From: an uncultured Chloroflexia bacterium | Lineage (GTDB): Bacteria > Chloroflexota > Limnocylindria > Limnocylindrales > CSP1-4 | DNA: 64,000 nucleotides | Assembly (NCBI GenBank): GCA_963841135.1 | Contig: CAWJBJ010000004.1 | Location: 543,496-607,495, forward strand | Direction: 5' to 3' | Part shown: positions 395 to 57,199 of the stretch, piece after piece | Layout of the letters: each line of letters opens with the position of its first letter | How positions within the stretch are numbered: the stretch's first letter is position 1 | Notes under the pieces: generated by a model | The model's database searches: none | What the model saw: only the letters and a program-made list of their open reading frames with translations | What the model was told of the DNA's origin: nothing | Translations under genes and position numbers: made by a program

Positions 395-1741
395 ATGTCT
401 GACACGAACGACGTGCAGTCGTTGACACCACGATCCATCTCGACGACCGAACTGCTCGAACGTCTCGGCGACCCGGGCGTGACGATCGTCGACGTCCGGC
501 CGATCGCCGCCTACAACGGCTGGCGCCTCCAGGGCGAAGCGCGAGGCGGCCACATCCCGGGCGCCGTCGGCCTTCCCGGCCGCCTGGCTGCGCAGCGTCG
601 ACGAGGCCGAGATCGAGCGCCTGCTCCACGAGAAGGGGATCACGCCGGATCGCACGATCGTGGTCTACGGCGACGGCGCCGAGGACGCGCGGCCGTCGCT
701 GACGCGCCTGACGTTGCACGGCCACGCCGGACGTCCTCCGCTACGACGCCGGGTTCGCCGGCGTGGGCGGCGGACGAGCGCCTGCCGATCGAGCGGCTGC
801 CGAACTACGAGCGACTCGTCCACGTCGAGTGGCTGCGCCAGCTCCTCGCCGGCGAGCGGCCCGGAGGCCTACGACAACGACAAGTTCCTGCTCTTCCACG
901 TCAACTTCGGCGTGCCCGAGGAGTACGAGGAGGGCCACCTGCCCGGCGCGCTCTACCTCGACACGAACCGCCTCGAGGACCCGGCCGACTGGAACCGCCG
1001 CTCGCCCGACGAGATCGAGGCGACCCTCCGGGCCCTCGGGATCACCCACGACACGACGGTCGTCGCTCTACGGCCGCGACACGGTGGGCGACGCCAACGA
1101 GAAGTGGCCGGGCCGTCGGGCCGGGCAGATCGCCGCGACCCGCGCCGCGCTCATCCTGCGCTACGCCGGCGTCGACGACGTCCGCCTGCTCGACGGCGGC
1201 TACGACTGGTGGGTCACCGACGGACACCCGCTCGAGACCGTGCATCCGCGAGCCGTCGCCGGTCGCGAGCTTCGGCGTCTCGATCCCGCAGCGCCCCGAC
1301 TACATCGTCGACATCGGCGAGGCCAAGGAGATCCTGGCCGACCAGGCCGGCGCCGCGCTCGTCAGCGTCCGCACCTGGCGCGAGCACATCGGCAACGTCA
1401 GCGGCTACAACTACATCGGCCCGGCCGGCCGGATCGCCGGCGACGTCTGGGGCAACTGCGGCACCGACGCGTACCACATGCAGCACTACCGCAACGTGGA
1501 CAACACGATGCGCGCCTACCCCGAGATCGCGGCCAACTGGGAAGAGGCCGGGATCACCCGCGACAAGTGGGTCGCGTTCTACTGCGGCACGGGCTGGCGC
1601 GCCGCCGAGACGTGGTTCTACGCCTTCCTGATGGACTGGCCGCGCATCGCGGTCTACGACGGCGGCTGGTTCGAGTGGAGCCAGGACCCGATCAACAACC
1701 CCATCGAGGTCGGCGAGCCCGAGGACGGCGTCGCCGCCTGA
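395..1741 (+). pseudogene. multi-rhodanese-domain thiosulfate sulfurtransferase, frame interrupted about 6 times
   Basis: Rhodanese-like segments are spread over three frames: 395.. (VTIVDVRP..GHIPGAV), the 660 frame (IVVYGDG; DKFLLFHVNFG..GHLPGALYLD), the 763 frame (LYGRDTVG..LLDGGYDWW), then back to the 395 frame. The C-terminal domain has the active-site loop FYCGTGWRAAE. GGGAG lies before ATG 395. Confidence 0.8.
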
Positions 1742-1947
1742 CCGATCCGTCGTGGGCAGGTTGGCGCGCCGCGAGGTCCGCTGGTACCGTTCGCGGCTTC
1801 CAGACGACGATCTCCGAAGGTCTAGTTCGCAAGCTCGCGGACCCTGAGCGGCTGCGATCGCCCTGCGGCTACCCGGACGACGATCCGTGACGACGTCTAC
1901 CCGATCGCTGGCGGCTGCCGCCAGGATTGACAGGCCTGCCGATCGCC

Positions 1948-2490
1948 ATGACCGACTGATCGCACTCGTACCCTCGAGACGCGAGAGCGTACGTCGCCGA
2001 GAAGCGCGGCCGCTACGTCGGCGACGTGATTGACCGGCCGGAGATCGGTCGATGATCCCGCCGGCCCGCAAGCTCGCCGTCCTCGCCTGCATGGATCGCG
2101 CCGGCTGACCGTCGAGGACGTCCTCGGCCTCGGAGCCAGGTGAGGCCCACATCTTCCGCAACGCCGGCGGCCTCGCGACCGACGACGCGATCCGGCTCGC
2201 TCGTCATGAGCCAGCGAGACTGCTCCGGTCGGCACTCGAGGAGTGTCATCGTGATCGAGCACACCGGCTACGGCATGCTGCCCTTCGAGGACGGCCCGCG
2301 TCGCGAGACTCCGATCGCCGAGGCGATCCGGGACCCGCGTCGGACCTAGCCGTTCCACGCCTTCCCGGACCTCGAGTCGAACCTGGCCGCCCAGGTCGAG
2401 AAGATCCGGTCCCACCCCTGGATCAAGGACGTGCCGGTCACGGGCGTCGTCTACGAGGTCGAGACCGGGCGCCTGCGCCAGGTCGCCTGA
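1948..2490 (+). pseudogene. beta-class carbonic anhydrase (Rv1284/CanA-like), frameshifted with an in-frame TAG
   Basis: Fragments KLAVLACMD / LTVEDVLGL / EPGEAHIFRNAGGLATDDAIR / SLVMSQR..VIVIEHTGYGM / FPDLESNLAAQVEKIRSHPW..VYEVETGRLRQVA lie in different frames. TAG at 2347-2349 interrupts the last stretch. Confidence 0.7.
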
Positions 2491-2574
2491 CCCCGCCTAC
2501 CTTCGTCGCGGAGGGCGGCCGTCACCCCGGCGTTCGTCCCTCCGTGAGTCGATCGCTGCCGGCTCCGGTCCGAG

Positions 2575-3955
2575 TCAGTCCCAGGCGGGGAGGAGCTGGC
2601 GGTCCAGCCACTCCCCGGGTTCCTGCCGCGGCCGGATGAGGGCCGCTTGTCCGCCCTGGACCGCCACCTCGGCCGGGATCGGGTGGGAGAGGAACAGCGG
2701 CATCGACTCCGTGTAGCCGTACGCGCCGACGTCCAGGACCGCGACGAGCTCGCCGACCTCCGGGGTGGCGAGGATCGCGTGCTGGGTGAAGACGTCGAGC
2801 CCTGAGCACAGCGGCCCGGCGACCGTCACGGGGCCCAGCCGGCCAATCGAGGCGGACTCCGGACGAGCCGACAGGACGCGGATCCGGTGCTCCTGGCCGA
2901 CCAGGGCCGGCCGCAGCAGGTGATGGACGCCGCCGTCGAGCACGACGACCGTCGAGCCGTCCACGGTCTTGCGGTCGACCACGCGCGAGAGGTACGCGCC
3001 GGCCGCGCCGACGAGGAAACGGCCCGGCTCGAGCAGCAGCCGCGCCTCGGACAGGAGCGGGTCGTCCGGCCAGGCGGCCACGATCCCGTCGAGGCCGCGG
3101 CCGAAGCGGGCGAGGTCAAGCGACTCCTCGTGGGACTTCGTACGGGATCCCGAGGCCGCCTCCGGCGTCGACAGGCGGACGGTCGTGCCGGCAAGCTCGG
3201 CGAGCTGGCGGGCGGCCCGGACGGTGGACGCGACATGGTCGACGAGCGCCGACGCGTCGAGGACGTTCGACGCCCCGAAGCAGTGCAGGCCCAGCAGCTC
3301 CAGGTGCGGTGACCGGGCGGCCTGTCGCGCCGAGCGCGACGAGGTCCGCCGCGTCCATCCCGAACTTGCCCGCGCCGTCGTCGCCGACGAGTCGGACGCG
3401 CTCGAGTCGGGCGCCCTCGCTCATCGCCGCGCGCAGCATCACCGGCACGCGACGGCCGGACGTGGCCGCGATCGCCTCGAGCCGTGCCGAGCTCACCCGG
3501 CGACTCGACGGTGATCGCCCGGATCCCGGCGGCCACCGCGGCCCGCAGCTCGTCGTCGCGCTTGCCCGGACCGGTCATGACGATGCGCGATGGGTCGATG
3601 CCCGCCCGCAGGGCCGTCGCCAGCTCACCGGCCGAGGCAACGTCGGCACCCGTTCCGAGCCGGCCGAGGTGCGCGACCACGGCCAGTGCCGGGTTCGCCT
3701 TCACGGCATACGCCAGATCGACCACCGCGCGGCAGCACGGCACGAAGTGCGGCGACCTGGCCGTCGATGACGTCGAGGTCGTACACGTAGAGCGGGGTCC
3801 CGAAGCGGGTCGCCAGCTCCTCGGGCGCCAGGCCGCCGAGACGACCCGCCCGGAGGATCTCGTTGCGTGCCGGCGGCCGGCCACGCCGCGGGCGCTCGAG
3901 AGCGTCCGCGCCGGGTGTCGTCGCCGATCGACGGCGGCGTGCGGGTCAGGCTCAT
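2575..3955 (-). pseudogene. lysA: diaminopimelate decarboxylase, at least 6 frame changes
   Basis: Fragments: N-terminal FGTPLYVYDLDVIDGQVAALR; VDLAYAVKANPAL..IVMTGPGK; GKFGMDAADLVAL; HLELLGLHCFGASNV; VDAGGGLGIPYE. The C-terminal 168 aa (2575-3081: LLLEPGRFLVG..LDVGAYGY) is intact. The ATG overlaps the dapD stop (ATGA 3952-3955). Confidence 0.8.
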
Positions 3956-4785
3956 CGAAGGGCGTCCTCGAGCGCGACCCGCGCGGCCGTGCCGGCGTCA
4001 CGGTCCTTGACGAGCAACGCCACGGACACCGAGAGGCCGTGCTCCTCGGCGAACCCGCCGGGCATGGACCGGGCGCCCGGCACGACCACGGCCCCGGCCG
4101 GGACGACGAGCGGCGCGTCCGCCGTGCCTGTGAGGACGCGTCCGCGGACGAGGTCGTAGAGCCGCGACGACCCGGTGAGGGTCACCCCGGCCCCGATGAC
4201 CGCGCCACGCTGGACCAGCACGCCCTCGAGGAGCGCGCTGCCCGCGCCGACGAACGCCTCGTCCTCGACGATGACGGGCCGGGCACCGGCGGGCTCGAGC
4301 ACGCCACCGATCGTCACCCCGGCCGACAGGTGGACCCGGGAGCCGATCTGGGCACACGAGCCGACCAGGACGTGGGAATCGACCATCGTGCCCTCGCCGA
4401 CCCACGCCCCGATGTTCACGTACGACGGCGGCATCACGACGACGCCGTCGGCCAGGTGCGCGCCGCGCCGGACCGCGGTGCCGCCCGGCACGATCCTCCA
4501 CGGCCCATCGGCGAGGTCGTCACGCGGGGGGACCGCCGCCCGGTCGCGGAAGGTCAGCGGGCCGACCGTCCAGGACTGCGTGGTCCGGTCGCCGAAGCAC
4601 GCGAGGATCGCGGACTTCACCTCGGGCCGGACCCGCCAGCCGTCCGGCGAGTCCGCGTCGGGCTCGGCGGCCCGGATCCTCCCCGACTCGAGGTCGGCGA
4701 GGATCGTCCGTGGATCGGTCGTGGCGGCCTCGGCCGTCGGTGACTCGGCGGTCGGCCGTGCCGACAGCTCGGTCTGGGCCGTCAT
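3952..4785 (-). CDS. dapD: 2,3,4,5-tetrahydropyridine-2,6-dicarboxylate N-succinyltransferase
   Basis: Uninterrupted 277 aa. Left-handed beta-helix hexapeptide repeats (VNIGAWVGEGTMVDSHVLVGSCAQIGSRVHLSAGVTIGG) follow a DapD-type N-terminal domain. ATGA overlap with dapA. Confidence 0.8.
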   Translation of the reverse strand: MTAQTELSARPTAESPTAEAATTDPRTILADLESGRIRAAEPDADSPDGWRVRPEVKSAILACFGDRTTQSWTVGPLTFRDRAAVPPRDDLADGPWRIVPGGTAVRRGAHLADGVVVMPPSYVNIGAWVGEGTMVDSHVLVGSCAQIGSRVHLSAGVTIGGVLEPAGARPVIVEDEAFVGAGSALLEGVLVQRGAVIGAGVTLTGSSRLYDLVRGRVLTGTADAPLVVPAGAVVVPGARSMPGGFAEEHGLSVSVALLVKDRDAGTAARVALEDALR

Positions 4786-5819
4786 GCCACGGCCTCGCGG
4801 GTCGTGGCCGGCGCGGCCATCGTCGGGGAGGCCATCCGGCCACCGGTCGACTCGAGCAGTCCGAGCGTGCGGAGCGTGCCGGCCATGGCGGCCCGAGCGT
4901 CCGCCTCGAGCGGCAGGAGCGGCGCGCGGACCGCATCGCTGTCGAGCAGGCCCATCAGCATGAGCGCGGCCTTCGCCGGGACCGGGTTCGGGCCGCCCCG
5001 GAAGTTGCCGAGGAACAGCGGCAGCCAGCGCTCGTGCGTCCGACGGGCCGTCTCCCAGTCGCCCGCGCGTGCCGCGGCACAGAGCGTGACGAGCTCGCCG
5101 GGGATCTCGTTCGACGCGACCGAGACCACGCCATCGCCGCCCATCGCGAGGACCGGCAGGGTCCAGGCGTCGTCGCCAGCAAGGACCGCCACGTCGCGCG
5201 GCCGCTCCCGGCAGATCCGGGCGATCTGCTCGAGGTTGCCGCTCGCTTCCTTGACCGCCACGACCCGCGGGTGCTCGGCGAGCCGCAGGAACGTGTCGGC
5301 GTCGACGTTCGTGCCGGTTCGGCCGGGCACGTTGTAGACGACGATCGGCAGGCCGCCCTCATCGGCGACCGCGCGATAGTGGGCATCGAGCATCCGGCCG
5401 TCGGGCCGGTTGTAGTACGGGGCGACGACAAGCGCCGCATCCGCGCCGAGCTCGGCTGCCCGGCGCGTCGCGCGGATCGTGGCGGCCGTGTCGTTCGTGC
5501 CGGTGCCGGCAACGACCCGCACGCGGGCACGTGACGAGCGCTCGCTCGCGACCTCGACGGTCGCCGCGATCAGCCGCTCGCGTTCCGATTCGCTCAGAGT
5601 GGGGGACTCGCCGGTCGTGCCGCACGGCACGAGGCCGTCGATCCCGGCGAGGATCTGCCAGCGGACGAGCCGTCGGAAGGCGCTCTCGTCGAGCGTGCCG
5701 TCGGGCGCGAATGGCGTGACCAGGGCGGTGAAGGCGCCGCGCAGCATCGGGCGGGTCGGGCGCGGCGTGGTCGTTGCGGTCGTGTCGATCGTCGGCGTGG
5801 TGGAGGTCGTCGGGGTCAT
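4782..5819 (-). CDS. dapA: 4-hydroxy-tetrahydrodipicolinate synthase with a Thr-rich N-terminal extension
   Basis: 345 aa. Contains FTALVTPF..VPCGTTGESPTLS..VVAGTGTNDT..YNVPGRTG. AAGGAG lies 5 nt before ATG 5819. Confidence 0.9.
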   Translation of the reverse strand: MTPTTSTTPTIDTTATTTPRPTRPMLRGAFTALVTPFAPDGTLDESAFRRLVRWQILAGIDGLVPCGTTGESPTLSESERERLIAATVEVASERSSRARVRVVAGTGTNDTAATIRATRRAAELGADAALVVAPYYNRPDGRMLDAHYRAVADEGGLPIVVYNVPGRTGTNVDADTFLRLAEHPRVVAVKEASGNLEQIARICRERPRDVAVLAGDDAWTLPVLAMGGDGVVSVASNEIPGELVTLCAAARAGDWETARRTHERWLPLFLGNFRGGPNPVPAKAALMLMGLLDSDAVRAPLLPLEADARAAMAGTLRTLGLLESTGGRMASPTMAAPATTREAVA

Positions 5820-5831
5820 CGGGTGCTCCTT

Positions 5832-6587
5832 TCAGGTCGTGTCGTGTCGGGTCGTCAGGCGGCGATCGGGGTCGCGAGCCAGGAGCTCGTCGACGATCGG
5901 ATCGAAGGAGTGGATGCCGGCCGGCCGCGGTTCGCGTGCCAGCCAGTCACCGGAGGCGAGGATCCCGGCCGCGTACGCGGTCCGGTCGCGGGCGGTCAGT
6001 CGAAGCTCGACGGTCTCGCCGGGCGCATCGAAGCCGACGAGGTGCATGCCCGGTGATGAGCCTGCCCGGATCGAGACGACCTCGAGGTCGTCGGGCTGGC
6101 TCAGGCCGGGGTGGCCGTCGACGATCCGCCCGGCCAGGTCACGCGCGGTGCCGGACGGACGGTCGAGCTTGGCGCGCCGGTGCCACTCGACGAGGTACGG
6201 GTCGAAGTCGTCGAGACGCCCGAAGAGCGCAACTGCCGAATCGATGAGCCGGCCGAAGAGTGCCACGCCGAGGCTGAAGTTCGAGGCGGCGACGGCCGCG
6301 GCATCGTGTCCGGTCAGCAGCCCTTCGACGAGCGCCCGGTCGGCGGTCCAGCCCGTGGTCGCGATCACGATCCGGCGGTTCCCGGCGTCGAGCGCACTCG
6401 AGAGGTTGGTGGCGACGGCGTCGGGCCGGGACGCCTCGACGACGAGATCGGCGCCGGTCAGCGTCGACGGATCATGCCGTCCGCGGGTCGGCCGCCCGAC
6501 GAGCCGGACCTCGTCGCCCCGCCGGCGCGCGGTCTCCGCAACGGCCGTCCCGAGGCCGCCATCGCCGAGGATGAGGATGGTCTGCAT
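5832..6587 (-). CDS. dapB: 4-hydroxy-tetrahydrodipicolinate reductase
   Basis: 251 aa. N-terminal ILILGDGGLGTAV NAD(P) fold and C-terminal DapB motifs (EWHRRAKLDRPSGTA). Confidence 0.9.
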   Translation of the reverse strand: MQTILILGDGGLGTAVAETARRRGDEVRLVGRPTRGRHDPSTLTGADLVVEASRPDAVATNLSSALDAGNRRIVIATTGWTADRALVEGLLTGHDAAAVAASNFSLGVALFGRLIDSAVALFGRLDDFDPYLVEWHRRAKLDRPSGTARDLAGRIVDGHPGLSQPDDLEVVSIRAGSSPGMHLVGFDAPGETVELRLTARDRTAYAAGILASGDWLAREPRPAGIHSFDPIVDELLARDPDRRLTTRHDTT

Positions 6588-6596
6588 GTCCGTGAT

Positions 6597-6619
6597 CCCT
6601 CACTTCGATTGGTGAGGGG
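6597..6619 (-). promoter_or_regulatory. hairpin sequestering the dapB Shine-Dalgarno
   Basis: Minus strand CCCTCAC-caatcgaa-GTGAGGG. The 3' arm contains GAGGG, 9 nt before dapB ATG 6587. Confidence 0.3.
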
Positions 6620-6640
6620 CCGCCGGGGGAGGTTCCAGAC

Positions 6641-6676
6641 AACGAAAAGCCGCGGTCACCGTCGTGGTGCCGCGGC
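6641..6676 (-). terminator. intrinsic terminator inside the dapB leader (attenuator candidate)
   Basis: Minus strand GCCGCGGCACC-ACGAC-GGTGACCGCGGC (7+4 bp) followed by TTTTCGTT. It lies between a candidate promoter/sORF and dapB. Confidence 0.55.
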
Positions 6677-6725
6677 CCCTGGAGCCTCCGTTCCCTGGAG
6701 GCCCCGGTTCGTCGTCGACGCGCCG

Positions 6726-6806
6726 TCAGAGCCCCAGGGCCCGTGCCTCCCGGCAGGGCCGCCAGAGCTTCTTCTTCGACTCCTCGGAGAAGGTGCGGCG
6801 GTTCAT
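6726..6806 (-). CDS. candidate leaderless leader peptide MNRRTFSEESKKKLWRPCREARALGL
   Basis: 26 codons with three consecutive AAG Lys codons (6768-6776). The ATG coincides with the predicted transcription start of the promoter at 6814-6842. No Shine-Dalgarno. Confidence 0.35.
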   Translation of the reverse strand: MNRRTFSEESKKKLWRPCREARALGL

Positions 6807-6813
6807 ATGCGGA

Positions 6814-6842
6814 ACCATACGCATAAAGCGAATCTCATGCAA
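6814..6842 (-). promoter_or_regulatory. candidate promoter TTGCAT-N17-TATGGT for the dap operon leader
   Basis: The hexamers sit in the only AT-enriched stretch of the dapB/M23 divergent region. The spacer is exactly 17 nt and the -10 ends 7 nt before ATG 6806. Confidence 0.35.
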
Positions 6843-7030
6843 CCATTTCCTGCAGGGCTTGCGGGCAGCCCACTGCTCCGGTGGTACACATCGGTCGGTG
6901 CCCCGCCCGTCTCCCGACCGGTTCCCCGGTCCCCTCGACAACCTGCCGCGCCCGCTGTCCGAGCGCGACCGCGGGGGTTCGGGGCGCCGACGACTGCTGG
7001 CACTGACGACGGTCGCGGTCGTGGTGGCCG

Positions 7031-7873
7031 GTGTCGTCGGAGCGAGCGCAGATGGCCGGCTCGGTGCGGCTGCCGGACATCGGCGCGGTCGCCGGGGCGA
7101 TCGGGACGCCGGCACACACCGATCCACCCGCCGCTGGCCGCACCGGGAACGGCGTCACCGGCGCGGACTCCGACGCGGCCATCCCCTTCGCAGCGCCCGA
7201 TGATCGCCTGGATCTCTCTCGCGTCCGCGCCAAGGTCGCCCCGCCGCCGTCGCGGCTGAGCGGCTACCAGTGGCCGCTTGCCCACGGACGCCTGACGCTC
7301 CCGTTCGGTCCGACTCCCTGGGGCTCGCGCATCGTCGACGGCGCGAACTTCCACGACGGCATCGACCTCGCGACGTTCTGTGGCGACCGCGTCCTCGCCG
7401 CCCACGACGGCGTCGTCCTGGCGGCCGGCCGGCACTACGACAAGCTCATGGGCTGGGTCGGCGACCTCGGGCCGTACCTGCGCCGCCTCGAGAAGAAGCA
7501 CCTGTGGGCAACGCTGCCGATCGTCGTCGTCATCGATGACGGCAACGGCTATCGCAGCATCTACGCCCACTTCGGCAAGATCACGGTCAAGAAGGGCGAT
7601 CGCGTGCGTGCCGGGAAGCTGATCGGCTACGAGGGCGCGACCGGCCGGGCGTCGGGCTGCCATCTCCACTACGGGCTCTTCAGCCCGCTCGAGCGCGCCC
7701 GGTTCAAGATCGACGCCGACGTCGCGAAGCGGATGAAGCTGCCCCGCTACGAGATCGCCCGGATCGACCCGCTGCTCGTCCTGCCGGAGCGGACGAAGGC
7801 ACCGAAGCCGACGCCGACGACGGATCCCGGCGCGGAGCCGACGCCCACGCCCTCGCCCGAAACGGTGGGCTGA
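7031..7873 (+). CDS. M23 family metallopeptidase (possibly frameshifted after its signal peptide)
   Basis: Contains HDGIDLA, GNGYRSIYAH and GCHLHYG motifs. A signal peptide, RRRLLALTTVAVVVAGVVGASA/DG, is encoded from GTG 6899 in the -1 neighbouring frame and meets this frame near 7045. Confidence 0.8.
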   Translation: MSSERAQMAGSVRLPDIGAVAGAIGTPAHTDPPAAGRTGNGVTGADSDAAIPFAAPDDRLDLSRVRAKVAPPPSRLSGYQWPLAHGRLTLPFGPTPWGSRIVDGANFHDGIDLATFCGDRVLAAHDGVVLAAGRHYDKLMGWVGDLGPYLRRLEKKHLWATLPIVVVIDDGNGYRSIYAHFGKITVKKGDRVRAGKLIGYEGATGRASGCHLHYGLFSPLERARFKIDADVAKRMKLPRYEIARIDPLLVLPERTKAPKPTPTTDPGAEPTPTPSPETVG

Positions 7874-7890
7874 GCACGCGACGCCGCGGG

Positions 7891-9301
7891 TCAGCGAGGG
7901 GCGGCGACCCGGCGGTAGCGGCGGGCGATCAGCCAGTACGCCGGGATCGACGCCAGCGCCTCCGACACCGACAGGACCCGTCCGTCGCGGCTCTCGAGCG
8001 AGAGCAGCGCGTCGGCCGATGACGCGTCGGCCGGCCGGGCATCCACCTCGGCGAGGTCGATCGCCACGCGTCCTGCCTCCTCGGGCCCGAGCGACGCGAT
8101 CAACGCGTCGGGTCGGGCGCCGGCTTCGTATTCGGCGCGGATCTCCAGGTCGGAACGCCACGTCGGCTGGCGCAGGAGCACCGCCCGCCAGCCGTCGGCG
8201 ACGGCGGACGCCACGGTGCCGTCGCCCGGTACGGCATGGGCCGACACCGCCTCGCCACGCGCCCAGCGCGCGGCCTGGTGGAGCAGCGCGTACTCGTCGA
8301 GATCGGCGTACGCGCTGAGGCGGTCGGCCGGCGACCCGTCGCCGAAGATCGCCCGGATCGACGGCGCGAAGAGCTCGGCGAGGTCGAGGTCGATGGCGCG
8401 GACCGTCCGGTGGAAGTAGACCTGCTGGTACATGAACCGGCGGGCCGTGAGGAACATCTCCAGCGCACCGAGACCCGGCTCGTAGAGCGTCAGCCCGCGC
8501 TCCGAGATGAACGTGTACCGCCGGAGCCTCTCCACGTCGACCGGGCCGACGGACACGCCGGTCACGTAGGCGTCGCGGCGCACGTAGTCCAGGTTGTCGA
8601 CGGTGAACACGCCCGACAGCAGCGGCTGGAGCCAGCGGACCCAGCGCGGCATCGCCCCGTCGACGAGTGCCGGCTTCGAGATCAGGAACGAGACCCAGGC
8701 CGGGTCGATCGCCTCGTCGTCACCGAAGGCGTCGCGCTCCGCGACGTCACCTGGCGCCCGGCGCAGGCCGCGCAGGAGCGCGCCGAGCTCGTCCTCGATG
8801 ATCCGCCCCGACAGATCCTCGTGGGTCAGGCGCTTGCCATCGGGTCGCCGCGGGTCGACGGGGGCCGGGAAGGCGACGAGGACCTGGTCGTCGAAGAAGT
8901 GGGCGAACGGCCCGTGGCCGACGTCGTGGAGGAGGCCGGCCATCCGCAGGGTCTCGACGACGAGGCCCTCCGACGGGACGGGCTCGGCCGCCACGGACCA
9001 GCTCGCCGCGCAGGCTCGGGTAGAGCGCCCGGGCCCAGACCCCGGCCTCGTGCATGACGCCGAGGCCGTGCGTGAAGCGCGAGTGCTCCGCTGTCGGGAA
9101 GACCCAGCGCGCGCTCTGGAGCTGGCTGATCCGCCGCAGCCGCTGCATCCAGGTGGTGTCGAGGACGTCCTGCTCGGCCACGTCCTCGTCCGGCAGCCCG
9201 GTCGCCGCCGATTCCTCGCGAGTGAGGCGCTTGGTCAGCTCCACGTACCCGTGGATCGGGTCGCTGATGAGGTTGACCGCCGCGAACTGGTGGCGCTTCA
9301 C
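7891..9301 (-). pseudogene. SAMHD1-like HD-domain dNTP triphosphohydrolase family protein, one +1 frameshift near 8995
   Basis: The N-terminal fragment (8747-9301) has DPIHGYVEL..QRLRRISQL..VFPTAEHSRFTHGLGV. The downstream fragment (7891-8994) has LHDVGHGPFAHFFD and DNLDYVRRD. GTGA overlap with the WYL gene. Confidence 0.8.
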
Positions 9302-10308
9302 GGTCCTGTCCCGTAGCGCGCAGCAGCCCGGGCATGCGTGGCGGCGACATCGTCGCGCAACGCGACGGGCTCGAGCACCTCGACGTCATCGCCCCACGAG
9401 AGGACCCAGAGCCGGATCTCGATCGGTCCCGCGACGGTCGCTCGCCAGACCACCGAGCCGTCCGGCTCCGGCTCCGCCGTCTGGGTCGGGTGCCAGCGCG
9501 TCTCCATGACCCGGGCCGCGACGGCCGGGGTGAACCGCAACACGACCGTCGTCGGCTCCTGGTCCGCGATGATGTCCCAGGCCCGGCGGAGTTCCTCGGT
9601 CGTGCCCGCCGGGTCGGGCGGATCGAACGTCCGCGGCGTGAGTGCCGCCTCCGCGATCCGCTCGATCTTGAAGGTCCGGATCGCGCCACGTTCCTCGTCG
9701 AAGCCCATCAGGTACAGCGCGTGGGTCTGCAGCGATGGCTCGATCAGGTACGGCCGGACGGTCGCGCGCCGGGGCGAGGCGCCGCCGTCGTAGCGCGCGG
9801 GCCGGTAGTCGATGGTCACGACCCGGCGCTCGGCCCAGGCCTTGGTCAGGAGCCGGACGTGCTCGTTGAACGCCGCGTCCCGCGGAGCGGTCGACATGAT
9901 GTCGAGGGTCCGCTCCACGTGCTCCGCCAGGGCCGGCGGGAGGCCCACCGCGAGCTTCTCGAACGCGGCCGCGAGGTCCGGGTCGTACTTGTCGGCGTAG
10001 CGGACCATCAACCGCGCGGACAGCACGACGGCCATCGCCTCGGACTGGGTCAGCTTGAGCGGCGGCAGGAACGCCTTGTCCGATTCGACGCCCCACCGCC
10101 CGCCCTCGGCCCAGACGGGGACGCCGATCTCCTCGTCGATGGCGCGCAGGTCGCGGTACACGGTCCGCACCGACATCCCGACCCGTTCCGCCAGGTCGCC
10201 CGTGCGGATGCCGTCGGGGTGCGCCTGCAGGATGGCCAGGAGCCGCGTCATCCGCGCCAACCGGTCGCGCTTGGCGCCGTACCGACCCGGTTCCGCCTCG
10301 ACGGTCAT
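9298..10308 (-). CDS. HTH-WYL domain transcriptional regulator (YafY/PafBC-like)
   Basis: 336 aa. N-terminal HTH (LAERVGMSVRTVYRDLRAIDE), central WYL-type domain (VTIDYRPARY..VRPYLI..LYLMGFD..IRTFKIERI) and a C-terminal extension. Confidence 0.85.
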   Translation of the reverse strand: MTVEAEPGRYGAKRDRLARMTRLLAILQAHPDGIRTGDLAERVGMSVRTVYRDLRAIDEEIGVPVWAEGGRWGVESDKAFLPPLKLTQSEAMAVVLSARLMVRYADKYDPDLAAAFEKLAVGLPPALAEHVERTLDIMSTAPRDAAFNEHVRLLTKAWAERRVVTIDYRPARYDGGASPRRATVRPYLIEPSLQTHALYLMGFDEERGAIRTFKIERIAEAALTPRTFDPPDPAGTTEELRRAWDIIADQEPTTVVLRFTPAVAARVMETRWHPTQTAEPEPDGSVVWRATVAGPIEIRLWVLSWGDDVEVLEPVALRDDVAATHARAAARYGTGP

Positions 10309-11489
10309 CGCGGCGGAGGATAGATGACGTGGTCGCGGTCGCGTTCCGTGGCGGTCATGTGGACCGCGACATCGCCGACGAGGGCCCCGGCGACGAGCCC
10401 CGCCCCGTCGCCGCCGGCATCGCCCACGACCTGGCCGAGCTGCCCGTCGAGGAAGACCCAGTAGTCAAGCTGCCCTCGCCATCGATGCAGGTCGGCGTCG
10501 CCGACGAGCCAGCGGATCTGCGGGAACGCCGCCTCGAAGGTGGCGCCATCGACCGCGACCCGGCAGCGGCGTGCCCGCGCGCCCTCGATGACCTCGACCC
10601 CGCGGTCCTCGGCGGTGGCCCGATTGTCGTACGTCAGCGCGGTGGCGAGCACCTGGAGGTCGATGGTCTGGCCGGCGACATCGGACGGCGGGACCGCCAC
10701 CCAACCCTCCCCTGGCACGCGCGTCCAGGCAGCGTCTGCAACACGGGCCGTGCCGACCTGCCCGAGCGTGCGATCGGTGGCGACGTAGCCGGTCCAGCGG
10801 TACTCGCCTCGGTCCCGCGTCCCGAGGATCTCCACGGACCCGATCGGGCGCAGGTCCGCGGTCGCGGTCAGGTCGGCCGACAAGCGGGCCTCCCGGCCGG
10901 CATCGAGTGGCGCATTGCACAACTGCGGCTCCGCCTCGGTGCCCGTCGGGCCGAAGCGCGACGAGGTCGGGACCGTGTCGCGGACGGCGATCTCGTTGGC
11001 GACCGCGGCGCCCGCGAACAACGACGACGACAGCAGCGTCAGCACGGCAGCGACGACGGCCCCGTCGACGAACCGGAGGCGGCGCAGGGCCGTCGCGCCC
11101 CGTCGCCGGCGGGCGATCCCGAGACCGCTGAACAGGCTGGTCGCGCCGAGCGCCAGCAGCCAGGGATACGCGGCTTCGAGCGAGGGCAGGAGCGTCTGCG
11201 ACCCGAGCGCCTGGATCTGCTCGATGACCCCCGCGATCGAGGGCACCAGGCAGAGCAGGGCGGCGATTCCCAGCCACACCATGCCTGCGAACGCTCCGTC
11301 GCCACGGCTGACCGGCGGCCAGACGAACCCGGCGACCGCGATGAGGATCGGCACGGTCATCGTCAGCCCCACGAGGACGTCCAGCGGCCCGCCGGGTCGG
11401 TAGGCGATGAGCACCAGCCCGGCTGCCACCACCCAGCCCGCCACGAGGGCGGCACCAACCAGTCGGAGCTCGAACTTGCGGACCCGCAT
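10305..11489 (-). CDS. polytopic membrane protein with a C-terminal extracytoplasmic domain, unknown function
   Basis: Start chosen at MRVRKFEL. 5-6 hydrophobic helices are followed by a roughly 230-aa soluble domain. ATGA overlap with the WYL regulator. Confidence 0.55.
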   Translation of the reverse strand: MRVRKFELRLVGAALVAGWVVAAGLVLIAYRPGGPLDVLVGLTMTVPILIAVAGFVWPPVSRGDGAFAGMVWLGIAALLCLVPSIAGVIEQIQALGSQTLLPSLEAAYPWLLALGATSLFSGLGIARRRRGATALRRLRFVDGAVVAAVLTLLSSSLFAGAAVANEIAVRDTVPTSSRFGPTGTEAEPQLCNAPLDAGREARLSADLTATADLRPIGSVEILGTRDRGEYRWTGYVATDRTLGQVGTARVADAAWTRVPGEGWVAVPPSDVAGQTIDLQVLATALTYDNRATAEDRGVEVIEGARARRCRVAVDGATFEAAFPQIRWLVGDADLHRWRGQLDYWVFLDGQLGQVVGDAGGDGAGLVAGALVGDVAVHMTATERDRDHVIYPPPR

Positions 11490-11567
11490 CGTGGCCGAGT
11501 CTAGCGGTCCGCACTCCGCAAGTACCGGGCTCGCCATGACCTCCGGTCCATCGCGTCGGGCGGCGCG

Positions 11568-12014
11568 TTGCCGTGGACTAACCGCACCGCAGCGGACCAG
11601 CCGTCGCGGGGACGAACCACCCAAGGGAATCGAGGAACGTGGGACATGGCAGGCCAGGCGCCACGAGGGTCACGGGGACGCGGGGAACCGTCTCGCCGCG
11701 CCTCGTCGTTGGCAGTCCCCGCGGTCCCTTCCGCGGCCGCCCCTGGTCCCAGGGCCACCTCGACCCGGCGATCGGCACGGGCCCGGACCCGCGAGCGGGT
11801 CGCGACCCTGCCGCCGCGCCAGACGTACCGAAAGCTGACGGGTCTGGGCCTGTCACCTGACGAAGCCGCCAACCTGACCGCGTTCATGAACGGCATCCCA
11901 CTCGACGGGGCCCATTGGTCGCTCCGTCAGGTCAACCAGTTGCTCTTCCTGCGCGAACTTCGCCGGACCGGCCGTTTCGGTCCGAAAGACGGGCGGATCA
12001 CCCGCCCCGCGTAA
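11568..12014 (+). CDS. hypothetical protein (only the C-terminal ~65 aa looks protein-like)
   Basis: ORF-track entry. The tail TYRKLTGLGLSPDEAANLTAFMNGIPLDGAHWSLRQVNQLLFLRELRRTGRFG uses atypical A/T-ending codons and a TAA stop. The N-terminus is Arg/Pro-rich and the start is uncertain. Confidence 0.3.
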   Translation: MPWTNRTAADQPSRGRTTQGNRGTWDMAGQAPRGSRGRGEPSRRASSLAVPAVPSAAAPGPRATSTRRSARARTRERVATLPPRQTYRKLTGLGLSPDEAANLTAFMNGIPLDGAHWSLRQVNQLLFLRELRRTGRFGPKDGRITRPA

Positions 12015-35987: not shown

Positions 35988-37182
35988 ATGACCATCGCGT
36001 CCACGCCCCGGGTCGCCGCCCGGATGCAGACCATCGGGACAGAGAGCGCCTTCGAGGTGGCTGCACGCGCCCGCGCGCTCGAGGCGGAAGGCCGCTCGAT
36101 CATCCACCTCCAGATCGGCGAGCCGGACTTCGACACGCCGGCCAACGTCCGCGCGGCCGCGAAGCGAGCGCTCGACGAAGGGGCGACGCACTACGCGCCC
36201 TATGCCGGGATCCCGCCGCTGCGGCAGGCGATCGCCGCGGATGTCACCGCCCGCAAGGGCTTCGCCGCCGACCCGTCGCAGGTGTTCGTGACCGTGGGCG
36301 GCAAGGGCGTGATGCTCTACGCGATCCTCGGCCTGGTCGACCCTGGCGACGAGGTGCTCGTGCCGGACCCCGGCTATCCGATCTACGAGTCGCTCGCACG
36401 CTTCGTCGGCGGGACGCCGGTGCCGATCCCGATCCGGATGGACCGCCAGTTCCGCCTCGACGTCGACGAGCTCGAGACCCTCGTCACGCCGAAGACCCGG
36501 ATGCTGGTCATCAACTCGCCGGCCAATCCGACCGGCGGCGTGCTCACGCGCGACGACCTTGAGCGGATCGCGGCTCTCGCCATCCGGCACGACCTGTGGG
36601 TCCTCGATGACGAGATCTATGCCCGGATCCTCTACGACGGCGCCGAGCACGTCTCGATCGCCTCGCTCCCCGGGATGGCCGAGCGGACGATCGTCCTCGA
36701 CGGCTTCTCGAAGACGTATGCGATGACCGGCTGGCGCCTCGGCTACGCGATCGTGCCGCCGTCCCTGATCAAGACCTACAGCCAGCTCGTCATCAACACG
36801 ATCAGCTGCGCCCCGACATTCGCGCAGATCGGCGCGGTCGAGGCGCTCACCGGGCCGCAGGACGACGTGGACGCCATGGTCGTCGAGTTCAAGGCCCGCC
36901 GGGACCTGATCGTCGCAGGACTGAACGCCATTCCCGGGATCCGCTGCGCCACGCCGGTCGGCGCGTTCTATGCCTTCCCCGAGGTCTCGGGCACCGGACT
37001 CGACGGCGCCACGATGGCCGAGCGGCTGCTCGTCGAGGCGGGCGTCTGCGTGCTGGCGGGGACCGCATTCGGGGGCGTCGGGCACGGACCATATCCGCGT
37101 CAGCTACGCGAACTCGCGCGAGAACCTGACCGAGGCCCTGTCGCGGATCGAGGGCTTCGTGTCCGGTCTCGGCCGTGCCTGA
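35988..37182 (+). pseudogene. class I/II (aspartate-type) aminotransferase with a +1 frameshift about 30 codons before the stop
   Basis: Contains NSPANPTG and SKTYAMTGWRLGY (PLP Lys). After AGTAFGGVGHG (about 37090, ggaCCat) the conserved tail HIRVSYANSRENLTEALSRIEGF continues in the next frame, ending at 37182. Confidence 0.8.
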
Positions 37183-38276: not shown

Positions 38277-38826
38277 ATGGCGACCGTCGACGAGGCCATC
38301 CAGAAGCAGCAACGCAACATCGAGACGCGGACGGGCAAGCCATTCGACGAATGGGTCGCGGCTCGCCCGCGCCAGCGGCAAGGCCAAGCACGGCGAGATC
38401 CTCGCGTGGCTGAAGGCCGACCACGGGTTCGGGCACGGCGACGCGAACCTCGTCGCGCTGACCGCGCTCCGCGGGCCTGCGGCGCCCGAGGGCGACGACC
38501 TCGTCGACGCGATCTACTCGGGCGCGAAGGCCGGCCTGCGACCGTTCCACGATCGGGTGATCGAGGCGGCGCGGTCCTTCGGGGCCGATGTCGAGCTCGC
38601 CCCGAAGCAGGCTTATGTCAGCCTGCGCCGGAAGAAGCAGTTCGGGTCCGTCGGGCCGGCGACGGGTGGCCGCCTGGAGATCGGCTTCAACCTCAAGGGC
38701 GTCGAGCCGGCCGGTCGCCTGGAGCCGACCACCGGCATGTGCACCCACCGCGTCCGCCTGTCGGATCCGGGCGAGTTCGACGCCGAGGTCGTCGGCTGGC
38801 TGCGTGAGGCCTACGACCGCTCCTGA
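38277..38826 (+). pseudogene. DUF4287/DUF5655 family protein, +1 frameshift near 38355
   Basis: MATVDEAIQKQQRNIETRTGKPFDEWVA continues in the next frame as LARASGKAKHGEILAWLKADHGFGHGDAN. AGGAGG lies before the ATG. Confidence 0.7.
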
Positions 38827-38844: not shown

Positions 38845-38917
38845 GGGCCGGTAGCTCAGTGGTCAGAGCAGGGGACTTTTAATCCCTGGGTCGTGGGTTC
38901 GAATCCCACCCGGCTCG
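38845..38917 (+). tRNA. tRNA-Lys (anticodon UUU), CCA not encoded
   Basis: Acceptor GGGCCGG/CCGGCTC, D arm GCTC-AGTGGTC-AGAGC, anticodon stem GGGGA/TCCCT with loop CTTTTAA, T arm GTGGG-TTCGAAT-CCCAC. Confidence 0.9.
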
Positions 38918-44625: not shown

Positions 44626-49237
<4,612 letters not shown>

Positions 49238-49241
<4 letters not shown>

Positions 49242-51085: not shown

Positions 51086-51090
51086 TCCGC

Positions 51091-53174: not shown

Positions 53175-53206
53175 CACCTTACAAGCGTACGGAAGCGTCG
53201 TCGCTC

Positions 53207-53234
53207 GAAAGGTTGCGGTCCGGGAAAGGTTGCG
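53207..53234. repeat. direct repeat GAAAGGTTGCG x2 (17-bp period) in the kinase/ppc divergent region
   Basis: Identical 11-mers at 53207-53217 and 53224-53234. GGTCCG occurs three times (53217, 53244, 53253). Confidence 0.6.
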
Positions 53235-53263
53235 AAGCGGTACGGTCCGCAAGGTCCGCTCTC

Positions 53264-56101
53264 GTGAGCGCCTCGCCGCGACGCGGACCCTCGGCCGCGG
53301 TCCGTGCCGAACCGGCCGGCATCGGCACGTCCGGCGCGCCGGACACGCTGTCCGCCGAGGTCCGGCTGATGGGCGCGCTCCTCGGCCAGATCGTCACCGA
53401 GCAGGCCGGCCCCGAGCTGTTCGAGCTCGTCGAGCGCGTCCGCCGGCGCACGATCGCGCTGCGCCACGACGACGATCCCGAGGAGCGCCGCCGGCTCGAC
53501 GAGGACCTCGCGGGTCTCGACCTCGGGTCCGCGGAGGCGGTCATCGGGGCGTTCGCGCTGTACTTCCAGCTGGTCAACCTGGTGGAGGCGCGCGGGCGGG
53601 TGCGGGCGCTCCGGCGCCGTGAACGAGCTGCCCGGGACGGCGTCCTCGACGACTCGGTGGCGGAGGCGATCGGCGAGCTCCGCCGGACCGGCCGGACGGA
53701 CGCCGAGCTCGACGCGTTGCTGGGTCGCCTCTCGATCACGCTCGTGCTGACCGCGCACCCCACAGAGGCCCGGCGGCGGACCGCGCTCGTCGCCCTGCGT
53801 CGCTGCGCGACGCTCCTCGAGCGGCTCGACGACCCGCGCCTGACCCCATCCGAGGACCGTGACGTCCGCCGCCGGCTGCGCGAGGAGATCACGCTCCTGT
53901 GGCGCACGTCGGACCTACGAGCCGTGTCGCCGTCGCCGCTCGACGAGGCCCGCACCGCGATGGCGTTCTTCGACGCGACGCTGTTCACGGTCGTGACCAG
54001 GCTGTACCGGGCGCTCGACGCCGCCGTGGATCCGCCGGCGTCGCGACGGGGCGCCGGGCGCCGCGACCGACTCGGGGCGGACCGGCACGCGCCCACCGCG
54101 CGTCGCCCCGTTCCTGCGCTGGGGCAGCTGGATCGGTGGCGATCGGGACGGCAACCCGGGCGTCACCGCCGACATCAGCGAGCGGACGCTGCGGATCCAG
54201 GCCGAACACGTCCTCCACGGGTACGAGGCCGTCGCGACCCGGCTCATGCAGACGACGGCCGCGGCCGCCTCGAGCGAGCGGGTCTCGCGGCACCTGGCGT
54301 CACGCCTCGCGCGCGATGCCGAGATGCTCCCCGAGGTGGACCGGCAGGTCCGGCGCCGCTTCCCCGACGAGCCGTACCGGCAGCGCTTCGGGTTCATGGC
54401 CGAGCGACTGCGCCGGACGCGGGCCTCGCTGATCGGCGAGGCGGCGCCGCTGACCGGCCGGTACGTCTCGCCCGAGGAGCTCGACGCCGAGCTCGACGAG
54501 CTGCAGGAGGCGCTTCTCGCGGACGGCCTCGATCGGGTCGCGTGGGGCGACGTCGCCGACCTTCGCTGGCAGCTCGGCACGTTCGGGTTCCATCTGGCGT
54601 CGCTCGAGATCCGCCAGCACGCCAGCGTCCACCGCGCCGCGTTGGAGGCGCTGCGGGCGGGCGCGGGCGGCGCGGCCGCGGGAACGGACGGCGGCGAGGC
54701 GGCGGACACCGCGGGCTCGCGCGAGGTCTCGCCGGGCGTCTCGCTCGACGAGGTGACCGGCACGTTCCGGTCGATCGCCGCGATCCAGGCGCGCTACGGC
54801 GTCGAGGCCTGTCGCCGGTTCGTCGTGAGCTTCACGTCCTCGGCGAGCGACGTCACCGACGTCCTCGAGCTCGCGCGCATCGCCACCGATGGCGTGCCAC
54901 CCGTTCTCGATGTCGTGCCCCTGTTCGAGACGACCGAGGCGCTCGCCGGAGCGGGCGGGATCCTCGACGCGATGCTTCGCGACCCGGTCTATCGGGCCCA
55001 TCTGGCCGAACGCGGCGACCGCCAGGAGGCGATGCTCGGCTACTCGGATTCGAACAAGGAATTCGGGGTTCCTGTCCGCCGCCTGGATGCTCCATCGGGC
55101 CCAGGAAGGGCTCGTCGAGGTCGCCGCCGCGACACGGTCTCGAGCTGACCCTGTTCCACGGCCGTGGTGGCGCGATCGGCCGCGGCGGTGGCCCGACGAA
55201 TCGCGCGATCCTGGGCCAGGCGCCGGGCTCGGTGGACGGGCGGCTGAAGCTGACCGAGCAGGGCGAGGTGATCGCCGCGAACTACTCGGACCCGGGCATC
55301 GCCCGGCGGCACCTCGAGCAGGTCACCGCGGCCGTGCTGCTGGCCTCGACGCCGGAACACGACGCCACGCTGGCGGCGGCGCTTTCCACGGGCCGGCCGA
55401 TCATCGACGAACTGGCCGCCACGTCCCGCGAGGCGTACCGGGCGCTCGTCCACGACGACCCGGGGTTCGCCTCGTTCTTCCGGGACATCACCCCGATCGC
55501 GGAGCTGTCGGCGCTCCGGCTCGGGTCCCGACCGGCGGCCCGCGGCCGGTCCGAGGGCGCGCCGTCGATCGACAGCCTGCGGGCGATCCCGTGGACGTTC
55601 GCGTGGTCGCAGTCCCGCATCAACCTGCCCGGCTGGTACGGGCTCGGGACGGCCCTCGAGCGGTACCGCGCCGTCCACGGCGAGGCCGGGCTCGACGCGG
55701 TCGCCCGGCTCGCGCGCGACTGGCCGTTCCTGCGGAGCCTCGTCGACAACGCCGAGATGAGCCTGGCCAAGGCCGACATGGGCGTCGCCCGCCTGTACGC
55801 GGCGCTCGCGAACGGGGATGGCGACGGCAGCCGCTGGGCGACCATCGAGACCGAGTTCCACCGCACGGTCGCGATGCTGCGGCGGATCACGGGGCGCGAG
55901 CGGCTGCTCGACGACGCGCCGGTGCTCCAGCGCTCGATCGCCCTCCGGAACCCGTACGTCGATTCGCTGTCCGAGCTCCAGGTCCGCCTGCTGGCGCGAC
56001 TTCGCGCGCTGCCGGCCGGCGACCCCGAGCGCGATCGCGTGCTGCGCCTGGTCCAGCTCACCGTCAACGGCGTCGCGGCCGGCCTCCAGAACACGGGGTA
56101 G
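53264..56101 (+). pseudogene. ppc: phosphoenolpyruvate carboxylase, three +1 frameshifts (about 54050, 55061, 55132)
   Basis: VLTAHPTE in frame 2; FLRWGSWIGGDRDGNP through MLGYSDSNKE in frame 3; SGFLSAAWMLHRAQ in frame 1; LFHGRGGAIGRGGGP through the C-terminal GLQNTG back in frame 2. Confidence 0.9.
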
Positions 56102-56111
56102 CGGCGGGCGC

Positions 56112-56685
56112 ATGGACCACGCGGACCACGTCGGCCTGCTGAGGGGCGGCGTCATCGAACCGGGCGGCACGTGGGCGGACATCGGTGCGGGTGCAGGGGC
56201 GTTCACGCTCGCGCTCGCGGATCTCCTCGGGCCCGGGGCCCGGATCATCGCCGTCGATCGCGATGCCCGCGCGCTGGCGACGAATGCGGAGACGGTTCGC
56301 GCACGCTTTCCGGGCGTCGAGATCGAGGCCCGCCAGGCCGACTTCGAGGGTGCGCTGGTCCTGCCGGCCCTCGACGGGCTGGTCGGCCGCCAACAGCCTG
56401 CACTTCGTCCGGCGCGATCGGCAGGCCGACGTCGTCCGCCGGCTCGTGGCCAGCCTCCGCCCGGGCGGCACGTTCATCGTGGTCGAGTACGACGCGGACC
56501 GGGGCAATCCATGGGTGCCGCACCCGTTCGGGTCTGCGTCGTGGAAAGGGCTGGCGGCGGACGCCGGGCTGGTCGACACGATCGAGATCGGCCGCGTGCC
56601 GAGCCGGTTCCTGGGCGCCATCTACGCGGCGGTGGGCCGGCGGACGGCGGTCGAGGCGGAGCGCGACCGGAGGCTAGCCGGCTAG
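56112..56685 (+). pseudogene. class I SAM-dependent methyltransferase, +1 frameshift near 56385
   Basis: Motif I DIGAGAGAFTLALA and IAVDRD in one frame. AANSLHFV and LRPGGTFIVVEYD follow in the next frame. Confidence 0.7.
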
Positions 56686-56831
56686 GTCGGCGCCCCCGGA
56701 TCGGTCGTCCTCACGACGCTCTCATGGGCGCCCGCGACGATCCGTCCAGGTTCGTTCGAGGGAGAACCACCCGAGGCGCGTATGCACCGACCGGATTGAC
56801 CACGCCCGACCACGCACACCAAGGAGATCAC

Positions 56832-57199
56832 ATGGACCACATCAACCAGCCATTCGTGCCGGCGCCGCCGGCCGCCGCCGGCGACGACGACACCGACCGG
56901 CGGCGTGCGTCGCACGGTCATCACCGCCGCGATCGCAGGTCTGCTGCTCGTCGGCGGTGGCGTTGCCGCCGTCTCGGCGGCCACGCCGGATCCGTCGTCG
57001 GCCCCGAGCACGACGGCGCCCGACACGACTCCATCCACCGGCCGGGACGCCGCGCACCCACACGCGCGCCGATGGCGACTGCCCGAAGCGGCTGACGGCG
57101 GCGCGGGCGGCTCGGGTGGCTCGTCGGAGGCACCGTCCACGACGCCCGACACGACGCCGGACGACCGCGCCGAGCACGGCGCCGACGCCGCTGACCTAG
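56832..57199 (+). pseudogene. small membrane-anchored Thr/Pro/Ser-rich protein, frame-disrupted
   Basis: AAGGAG lies 6 nt before ATG 56832 (MDHINQPF..). The TM segment VITAAIAGLLLVGGGVAAV is in the +1 frame from about 56900. Only the frames other than the TM frame stop before the hairpin at 57212. Confidence 0.3.

Follow-up and report, generated by a model that had tools for sequence, protein, structure and literature searches.

Genes and frame breaks in the window

The window, a 64,000-nucleotide stretch of a contig from an uncultured Chloroflexota bacterium, contains 11 genes with broken reading frames. Breaks were placed using a custom protein-to-DNA aligner that allows frameshifts, together with DNA alignments to relatives. 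In these DNA alignments, most single-base events appear as a single additional base in the window, absent in every aligned relative (2 to 7 relatives per site, the rhodanese sites and position 3918 being compared with L161 alone).

The SseA-like rhodanese-domain sulfurtransferase gene (PF00581; 395–1741, plus strand) carries six single-base insertions, placed by DNA context against L161 at ~567, 729, 757, 858–861, 1065 and 1242–1244. All six coincide with +1 shifts proposed in the first-pass annotation (~570–1242), a reading of the sequence alone that preceded this analysis. Aligned to P0001 and a further five homologues, the gene was covered over 446 of 446 residues at 90% identity, with six +1 frameshifts, no stops and no further indels, and the gene measures 446 codons plus exactly 6 nt. 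The region containing the six frameshifts is also where similarity to L161 is highest (88% at the nucleotide level).

The beta-carbonic anhydrase gene, a Pro_CA homologue, lies on the plus strand (1948–2490), which corrects its earlier strand assignment. Its damaged patch (1955–2350) holds 14–19 insertion events of 1–7 nt each, some of them multi-base and stutter-like, for a net gain of 33 nt, whilst the stretch 2350–2620 is clean. Approximately 7% of the bases in the patch are inserted and ~0% deleted, and a −1 event previously called at ~2097 is actually a 2-nt insertion. With the extra bases skipped, the gene is colinear with its L161 counterpart along the full 169 residues and, despite the net 33 extra bases, decodes to a protein ~80–85% identical to its homologue, with a Cys-to-Tyr change within the HTGCG zinc-ligand motif. 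In lysA (diaminopimelate decarboxylase; 2575–3955, minus strand), alignment to homologues placed single-base insertions at 3918, 3725, 3486, 3335 and 3135, together with one genuine deletion of 1 nt at 3173 (CC to C), reproducing the earlier tally of five +1 events and one −1 event (~3170). The gene measures 459 codons plus 4 nt, and the corrected protein covers positions 4–246 of the 247 in Pfam Orn_Arg_deC_N.

The M23 peptidase gene (6976–7873, plus strand; start codon uncertain) has its signal anchor in frame 1 (6976 to ~7045) and its catalytic part in frame 2, which contains a stop codon at 7004–7006. The single-base insertion proposed near 7045 is retained as probable, on the resemblance of the frame 1 segment to the N-terminus of the L081 homologue (RRSRLL followed by a transmembrane segment). 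Within the gene for an HD-domain phosphohydrolase (7891–9301, minus strand; Pfam HD and HD_assoc_2), an extra G relative to L161 and L081 was placed at 8986, close to the earlier estimate of ~8995. An apparent −1 event in this gene near 8.2 kb was rejected, as that frameshift belongs to the references L161 and L081. No Rfam identity was found for a conserved non-coding element at 6.65–6.8 kb.

Further along the plus strand, +1 events were placed in a class I/II aminotransferase gene (35988–37179) at 37081 (GG to GGG, the base being missing in seven relatives) and, by alignment and Pfam, in a DUF4287/DUF5655 protein gene (38277–38826) at 38362. The aminotransferase matches Pfam Aminotran_1_2 over positions 3–361 of 361. 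A Viterbi path also broke an AlkZ-like gene near 40.09 kb, but this candidate was discarded because Pfam spans the whole domain in one frame. The gltB gene (glutamate synthase large subunit; 44626–49241) has extra bases at 44987, missing in both alignable relatives (L002 and L057), and at 45636, missing in seven of seven. Three insertions lie in ppc (phosphoenolpyruvate carboxylase; 53213–56101, exact start codon uncertain), at 54057, 55063 and 55133; its alignment covered 934 of 934 homologue residues at 89% identity with no stops. An SAM-dependent methyltransferase gene (56112–56685) has one insertion at 56386 (G to GG; alignment and Pfam). Each of these sites lies within about 10 bases of its first-pass position (~37090, ~38355, ~44989, ~45645, ~54050, ~55061, ~55132 and ~56385, respectively). 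Lastly, a small membrane-anchored Pro/Thr/Ser-rich protein (56832–57199, plus strand) shifts from frame 3 to frame 1 at ~56870–56900: its frame 3 N-terminus, MDHINQPFVPAP, matches MEPTFQPLVPAP of L050, and its frame 1 transmembrane segment matches L050 and L002, so that the shift suggested at ~56900 is now backed by the N-termini of two relatives. Further shifts near 57041, 57097 and 57155, in a low-complexity region, are weak possibilities.

Spectrum, distribution and context of the insertions

Frameshift-aware alignment against intact homologues yielded ~37–45 frame-breaking events. The earlier figure of 11 affected genes stands, whilst its count of 25–30 breaks is superseded because damage to the carbonic anhydrase gene is much heavier than first described. 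The alignments bore out both the breaks and their +1 bias: all events except one are extra bases, with ~36 or more insertions against one deletion across all genes, and 22 against one outside the carbonic anhydrase gene (two-sided binomial p ~6e-6).

The strong clustering noted previously also held. Events fall into five clusters (0.4–3.9, 7.0–9.0, 37.1–38.4, 44.9–45.7 and 54.0–57.2 kb), and 37 uniformly placed events would leave a 27.7-kb stretch empty with a probability of ~8e-10. Alignments and codon-usage Viterbi segmentation detected no breaks at 3.96–7.0 or 9.3–37 kb, consistent with the break-free intervals first reported (3.95–7.0 and 9.3–37 kb), and across the whole window the segmentation found none beyond those in the 11 genes. 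The proposal that gene-specific cluster boundaries fit decay did not survive, as clusters cross genes and spacers. The first covers three neighbouring genes and the intervening spacer, appearing superficially gene-bounded where it ends within ~40 nt of the lysA/dapB boundary, and the last takes in two-thirds of ppc, at its 3' end, together with the next two genes. At 1–4 kb, clusters are on the scale of read length rather than of genes.

Insertion sites in the window lie in runs of 1–3 bases, and 10 of the 25 well-placed sites duplicate a neighbouring base. Long homopolymers are thereby ruled out as the explanation, and the classical association with them was absent. Tests of 3-mer and 4-mer enrichment around the 25 well-placed sites gave no motif that was significant after multiple testing. 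GATC had looked frequent near the carbonic anhydrase insertions, but its enrichment test was null, and a methylation or sequence-motif explanation was set aside. As +1 sites in the Nanopore relatives likewise lie in runs of 2–3 bases, these events are not errors of the homopolymer class. In Nanopore assemblies the classical errors favour deletions and occur at homopolymers (PMC12007338); the profile in the window is unlike these, and the only documentation of it given here is empirical and comes from the MFD relatives.

Condition of the broken genes

With extra bases skipped, all 11 genes are full length, match homologues from one end to the other and contain no in-frame stops. Private changes at invariant columns, assessed in the genes with enough relatives (rhodanese, ppc, gltB and aminotransferase), numbered zero in rhodanese, gltB (334 columns) and the aminotransferase, and two in ppc, equal to the median of its relatives. 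The dN/dS values of these same four broken genes (0.11–0.23, ppc having 0.11) are within those of intact neighbours (0.04–0.31). Bacterial pseudogenes have a deletion-biased indel spectrum, as Mira, Ochman and Moran (in 2001) and Kuo and Ochman (in 2009) reportedly described. Genuine decay thus predicts deletion bias, stops and relaxed selection, none of which was seen, and this supports assembly artefact as the source of the breaks. Substitution-type lesions in the carbonic anhydrase gene had been put forward as a sign of decay, but its lesions are overwhelmingly insertions, and its mismatch density against L161 is ordinary.

Long-read and short-read relatives

MFD MAGs are Nanopore-only assemblies given one round of Medaka polishing (PMC12313526). 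Across homologous genes, loci from these MAGs contained 55 frame changes (43 +1 and 12 −1, a ratio of roughly 4:1 for insertions) per 99,069 aligned residues, compared to two per 93,600 in short-read MAG loci of the same clade. For ppc and gltB, a precise aligner showed that 10 Nanopore loci together carried 29 simple +1 events, whereas 10 short-read loci carried none. Breaks in each relative strike different genes at different positions (in L161, PNTB, lysA, dapA and dapB), such that the same type of lesion recurs at other sites in long-read relatives and scarcely in short-read ones. No conspecific sequence was found in the collections searched: exact look-ups of three intact window proteins gave no match, an exact 50-mer was absent from genome_contigs, and in the protein collection the closest matches to rhodanese and ppc reached only 88–90% amino-acid identity. 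A search of sequencing runs returned only soil runs, none of them holding more than 13% of the sampled words.

Origin of the frame breaks

The lesions are almost all insertions, lie in genes without signs of decay and are of a type specific to the long-read assemblies of this clade. Judged from these alignments, the frame breaks are very probably single-base insertion errors, arising in base-calling or consensus, of a noisy long-read metagenome assembly rather than decaying genes, a verdict that is comparative, not direct. The initial suggestion that insertion bias favours consensus errors, whether from an insertion-prone read technology or from patches of low coverage or lacking polish, agrees with every test that could be run, and gene-fragmenting indels are documented in long-read assemblies (PMC12007338, PMC8103633). 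The assembly would be long-read-only, most likely a Nanopore MAG of the Flye/Medaka type like its closest public relatives, in which poor local read depth or quality over stretches of ~1–4 kb could have left spurious extra bases in the consensus. The ~400-bp carbonic anhydrase patch would then be close to raw-read quality, for which a single Cys-to-Tyr change at a zinc ligand would be expected, and the real genes of the organism would be intact. As to the local cause, low depth and strain mixture are both candidates. We regard as tentative, and on balance unlikely, the version in which the consensus collapsed co-occurring strains and kept bases of both where reads disagreed, placing insertions in micro-diverse rather than low-depth regions. 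A bias to insertions alone that is linked to neither homopolymers nor motifs, the stutter-like insertions of the carbonic anhydrase patch and the high micro-diversity of soil metagenomes (PMC12313526) would suit this version, but the clusters do not show raised mismatch density against relatives, and low depth alone fits the pattern equally well.

If the rhodanese, can, lysA, gltB, ppc and other genes were instead recent pseudogenes being lost through real single-base insertions, repeated hits would pile up once a gene was dead, in keeping with several lesions per gene, strong clustering, the zinc-ligand change and a first cluster ending near a gene boundary. We consider such loss improbable: the insertion-to-deletion ratio of ~36:1 is the opposite of the bacterial pseudogene bias, nonsense codons and excess private substitutions are lacking, dN/dS is normal, and such lesions are, among relatives, confined to long-read assemblies. 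Six indels in rhodanese or ~19 in the carbonic anhydrase gene without matching substitution damage are implausible, because substitutions are several-fold commoner than indels in bacteria. Such loss would also strike core biosynthetic functions: lysA, gltB, ppc and an aminotransferase belong to core metabolism, and the lineage is a free-living soil one with 72% GC. Very improbable, too, is that the extra bases are real and reflect an insertion-biased mutational process or very recent burst in a soil Limnocylindria-like lineage; were this true, core metabolic genes would be inactivated faster than substitutions accumulate, perhaps owing to a defective polymerase or repair system. Programmed +1 recoding or transcript-level correction, by which the genes would be functional as written, draws only on the uniform +1 direction and has a vanishingly small probability, given that the shift sites are conserved in no orthologue, all aligned relatives lack the extra base, there is no common motif or slippery sequence, up to 6–19 shifts would be needed per gene, and short-read genomes of the clade are free of such lesions.

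With consensus errors of a long-read assembly as the almost certain cause, this finding is a data-quality problem rather than biology and has no biological significance, since the organism itself almost certainly carries intact genes. Insertion-biased breaks, reaching ~0.5–0.9 per kb in patches, occur in the window and also in many of the clade's public Nanopore-only MAGs, and they break up core genes, among them gltB, ppc, lysA and dapA. Pseudogene counts are raised as a result, pathways look less complete, and gene callers are led to output antisense shadow ORFs instead of the true gene. Metabolic inference and pseudogene statistics from such MAGs therefore need frameshift-aware annotation or re-polishing.

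Comparison with known systems

Genuine pseudogenes, such as those of Mycobacterium leprae and recent host-restricted pathogens, resemble the window in that frames are broken repeatedly within a gene and several such genes share a region. Unlike these, the window shows neither deletion bias nor stop codons nor relaxed selection, retains full-length colinearity, and is hit in the core metabolism of a free-living lineage. A programmed +1 frameshift of the prfB type would be expected to show a conserved site and a recognizable motif, neither of which was found here. The closest likeness is to long-read indel errors (Kastor, PMC12007338; PMC8103633), in which single-base indels split intact conserved genes, comparison with homologues reveals the breaks, short-read relatives are without them, and clustering occurs where the consensus is weak. 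The classical R9-era profile consists of deletions in homopolymers of four or more bases, whereas insertions make up nearly all errors in the window and fall in runs of 1–3 bases at 72% GC, a profile shared by the R10.4.1/Flye/Medaka MFD relatives. In raw PacBio CLR reads, insertions are much commoner than deletions and mismatches, and the carbonic anhydrase patch, with its insertions, near absence of deletions and ordinary mismatches, resembles such a profile, although the relatives that share the bias of the window are Nanopore assemblies.

Placement and extent of the frame breaks

Frame changes were first re-identified by GC3 frame plot and by blastx of the window (72% GC) against GC3-filtered ORFs of relatives. 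We then aligned intact homologues to each gene using a purpose-written local protein-to-DNA aligner with frameshift states, and verified break sites in multiple DNA alignments, where at 8 of 8 sites one window base was absent from every aligned relative (2-7 relatives per site). When the entire window was segmented by a Viterbi model of codon usage, all listed breaks were recovered and, beyond ordinary gene boundaries, none further; 9.3-37 kb was clean, as described in the first-pass annotation, and includes its unbroken 2.9-kb ORF, a 977-aa protein (17625-20558, minus strand) with a MerR-type HTH, three GAF domains and a GGDEF domain. In sum, approximately 37-45 events, at least 36 insertions and one deletion, affect 11 genes; that annotation had named the same 11 genes but undercounted the events at 25-30.

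In the rhodanese gene, the six +1 shifts already noted were placed identically with six different references (approximately 567, 729, 757, 860, 1065 and 1243); the length of the gene exceeds 446 codons by exactly 6 nt, and all of its residues (446/446) align, with 90% identity and without a stop or other gap. On the minus strand, lysA contains, as originally read, five single-base insertions (3918, 3725, 3486, 3335 and 3135) and one true single-base deletion (CC to C, 3173). Frameshift-aware alignment also located the expected +1 shifts in the HD-domain gene (8986, minus strand), aminotransferase (37081), DUF4287/DUF5655 gene (38362), gltB (44987 and 45636), ppc (54057, 55063 and 55133) and methyltransferase (56386). 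At 54690, ppc additionally carries an in-frame 12-codon insertion relative to the related contig L057; this probably reflects genuine length variation of a variable loop rather than an error. The proposed break in the small membrane protein is real because its N-terminus MDHINQPFVPAP (frame 3) and TM segment (frame 1) both match one and the same frame of L050 and of L002, two Nanopore-only relatives; up to three more weak breaks lie downstream in low-complexity sequence. Short of proof, the suggested change from frame 1 to frame 2 near 7045 in the M23 peptidase gene is probable, as frame 1 RRRLL plus a TM segment resembles the N-terminus of the homologue in L081 (a contig syntenic with the window over 2.6-19.5 kb) and frame 2 is interrupted by a stop codon (7004-7006).

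The carbonic anhydrase gene lies on the plus strand (1948-2490), and the -1 event reported near 2097 is actually a 2-nt insertion. Within 1955-2350 there are 14-19 small insertions (net +33 nt), and the gene is clean from 2350 onward. This 400-bp patch, with approximately 7% inserted bases and no deleted bases, looks like sequence of near raw-read quality; mismatch density is ordinary and insertions dominate, contrary to the earlier reading of substitution-type lesions as a sign of decay.

Signatures of gene decay

With the extra bases skipped, no in-frame stops were found in any broken gene, and Pfam domains were covered end to end (e.g. Aminotran_1_2 3-361/361, Orn_Arg_deC_N 4-246/247). Many-relative alignments revealed no window-private changes at otherwise invariant columns in rhodanese, aminotransferase or gltB (334 invariant columns in the last), and two in ppc (relatives' median, two). 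Similarity of rhodanese to outgroups was 80.0%, compared to 78.6-79.8% for intact relatives, and dN/dS against the nearest relative was 0.19 (rhodanese), 0.11 (ppc), 0.17 (aminotransferase) and 0.23 (gltB), compared to 0.04-0.31 for intact neighbour genes. Between 6 and 19 real indels in one gene should be accompanied by several-fold more substitutions; carbonic anhydrase, despite approximately 19 events, decodes colinearly and is approximately 80-85% identical to the L161 protein.

Comparison with long-read and short-read relatives

The nearest relatives in a genome collection search were Chloroflexota MAGs of the Limnocylindria/Limnocylindrales group, the majority 'MFDxxxxx.bin' MAGs with contigs of 0.2-3 Mb named contig_N. 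L057 shares approximately 85% nucleotide identity with the window across 41-62 kb, and the ENA metagenome contig L161 shows synteny across 31-11,867 at 83-88% identity. No conspecific accurate sequence was found in the protein collection, where top matches were 88-90% identical. Two tRNA genes of the window, 34-107 (minus) and 38845-38917 (plus), are intact, the latter being a conserved synteny point with 90-97% identity in all relatives.

Twenty-four window proteins, those of broken genes having been stitched, served as queries against the relatives' loci, and HSPs were chained by frame; short-read loci were recognized by k141_, NODE_ and scaffold names. The 30 Nanopore-type loci yielded 55 frame changes (43 +1, 12 -1) per 99,069 aligned residues, against 2 per 93,600 in 39 short-read loci. 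With the precise aligner, applied to ppc and gltB only, 29 simple +1 events were found in 10 Nanopore loci and 0 in 10 short-read loci; like those of the window, these sites fall in runs of 2-3 bases. The genes and positions affected differ between assemblies: L161 has intact rhodanese and carbonic anhydrase genes and broken PNTB, lysA, dapA and dapB, and gltB of L057 carries four breaks. Overall break density in the window (approximately 0.4-0.6 per kb) falls in the range of the worse relatives (0.5-0.9 per kb in L002, L006 and L161). The earlier proposal that insertion bias indicates consensus errors is supported by intactness, dN/dS, direction and this comparison, and technology specificity is the most telling of four read-free tests.

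Insertion-biased core-gene breaks in Nanopore-only MAGs include L161 1291-2748 and 12038-15476, L057 10348-13047, and ppc, gltB and aminotransferase in L002, L006, L050 and L063. PNTB is split in three in such relatives, and lysA, dapA, dapB, gltB and ppc are broken as well; the clade's short-read MAGs are without such breaks. At L161 17581-18801 (plus strand), and its L081 equivalent, a public gene call (406 aa, without a Pfam match) corresponds to a shadow ORF running antisense to the HD-domain gene; the genuine gene, on the minus strand, is itself frameshifted in the L161 assembly. In high-GC MAGs, gene callers can thus be led astray by such errors.

Clustering and sequence context

Clusters were regional and not gene-bounded, contrary to the first impression of gene-specific boundaries. 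One (0.4-3.9 kb) covers three genes and the rhodanese/carbonic anhydrase spacer, another (54.0-57.2 kb) the final two-thirds of ppc together with the following two genes, and the 37.08 and 38.36 kb events lie either side of an intact gene. The spacer (1740-1947) is approximately 100 nt longer than that of L161 and unalignable to it; it probably belongs to the same low-quality patch, although it may be a real insertion. An extent of 1-4 kb is consistent with local drops in long-read depth. No motif, GATC included, was enriched at break sites, which lie outside long homopolymers; these are therefore not the homopolymer deletions that are the classical error of older Nanopore assemblies (PMC12007338).

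A conserved element upstream of the M23 peptidase gene

Between the minus-strand gene 5832-6587 and the M23 peptidase gene, non-coding positions 6650-6800 are 80-90% conserved at the nucleotide level in five relatives, above flanking coding DNA. The element has three conserved hairpins with almost no covariation and no match to an Rfam family. It may serve the M23 gene as a leader or in the manner of a riboswitch, or may be a small RNA, on either strand.

Origin of the breaks and comparison with known systems

The frame breaks represent no real biological feature and, on comparative grounds, are very probably consensus errors, in which the extra bases would stem from low read depth or strain collapse in the polisher. 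Genuine recent pseudogenization, which clustering had initially seemed to fit, is improbable: bacterial pseudogenes are deletion-biased, the opposite direction to the window (insertion:deletion ratio approximately 36:1), and the broken genes are without relaxed selection or stop codons. Bridging of the breaks by any recoding mechanism is extremely implausible since, unlike programmed frameshifting, they have neither a conserved site nor a shift motif. The chief use of the finding is caution when annotating Nanopore-only MAGs. Gene-fragmenting indels are a known class of error in long-read assemblies, which the window pattern matches (PMC12007338, PMC8103633), differing from the textbook profile only by homopolymer independence and an insertion bias that is documented empirically in the MFD relatives.
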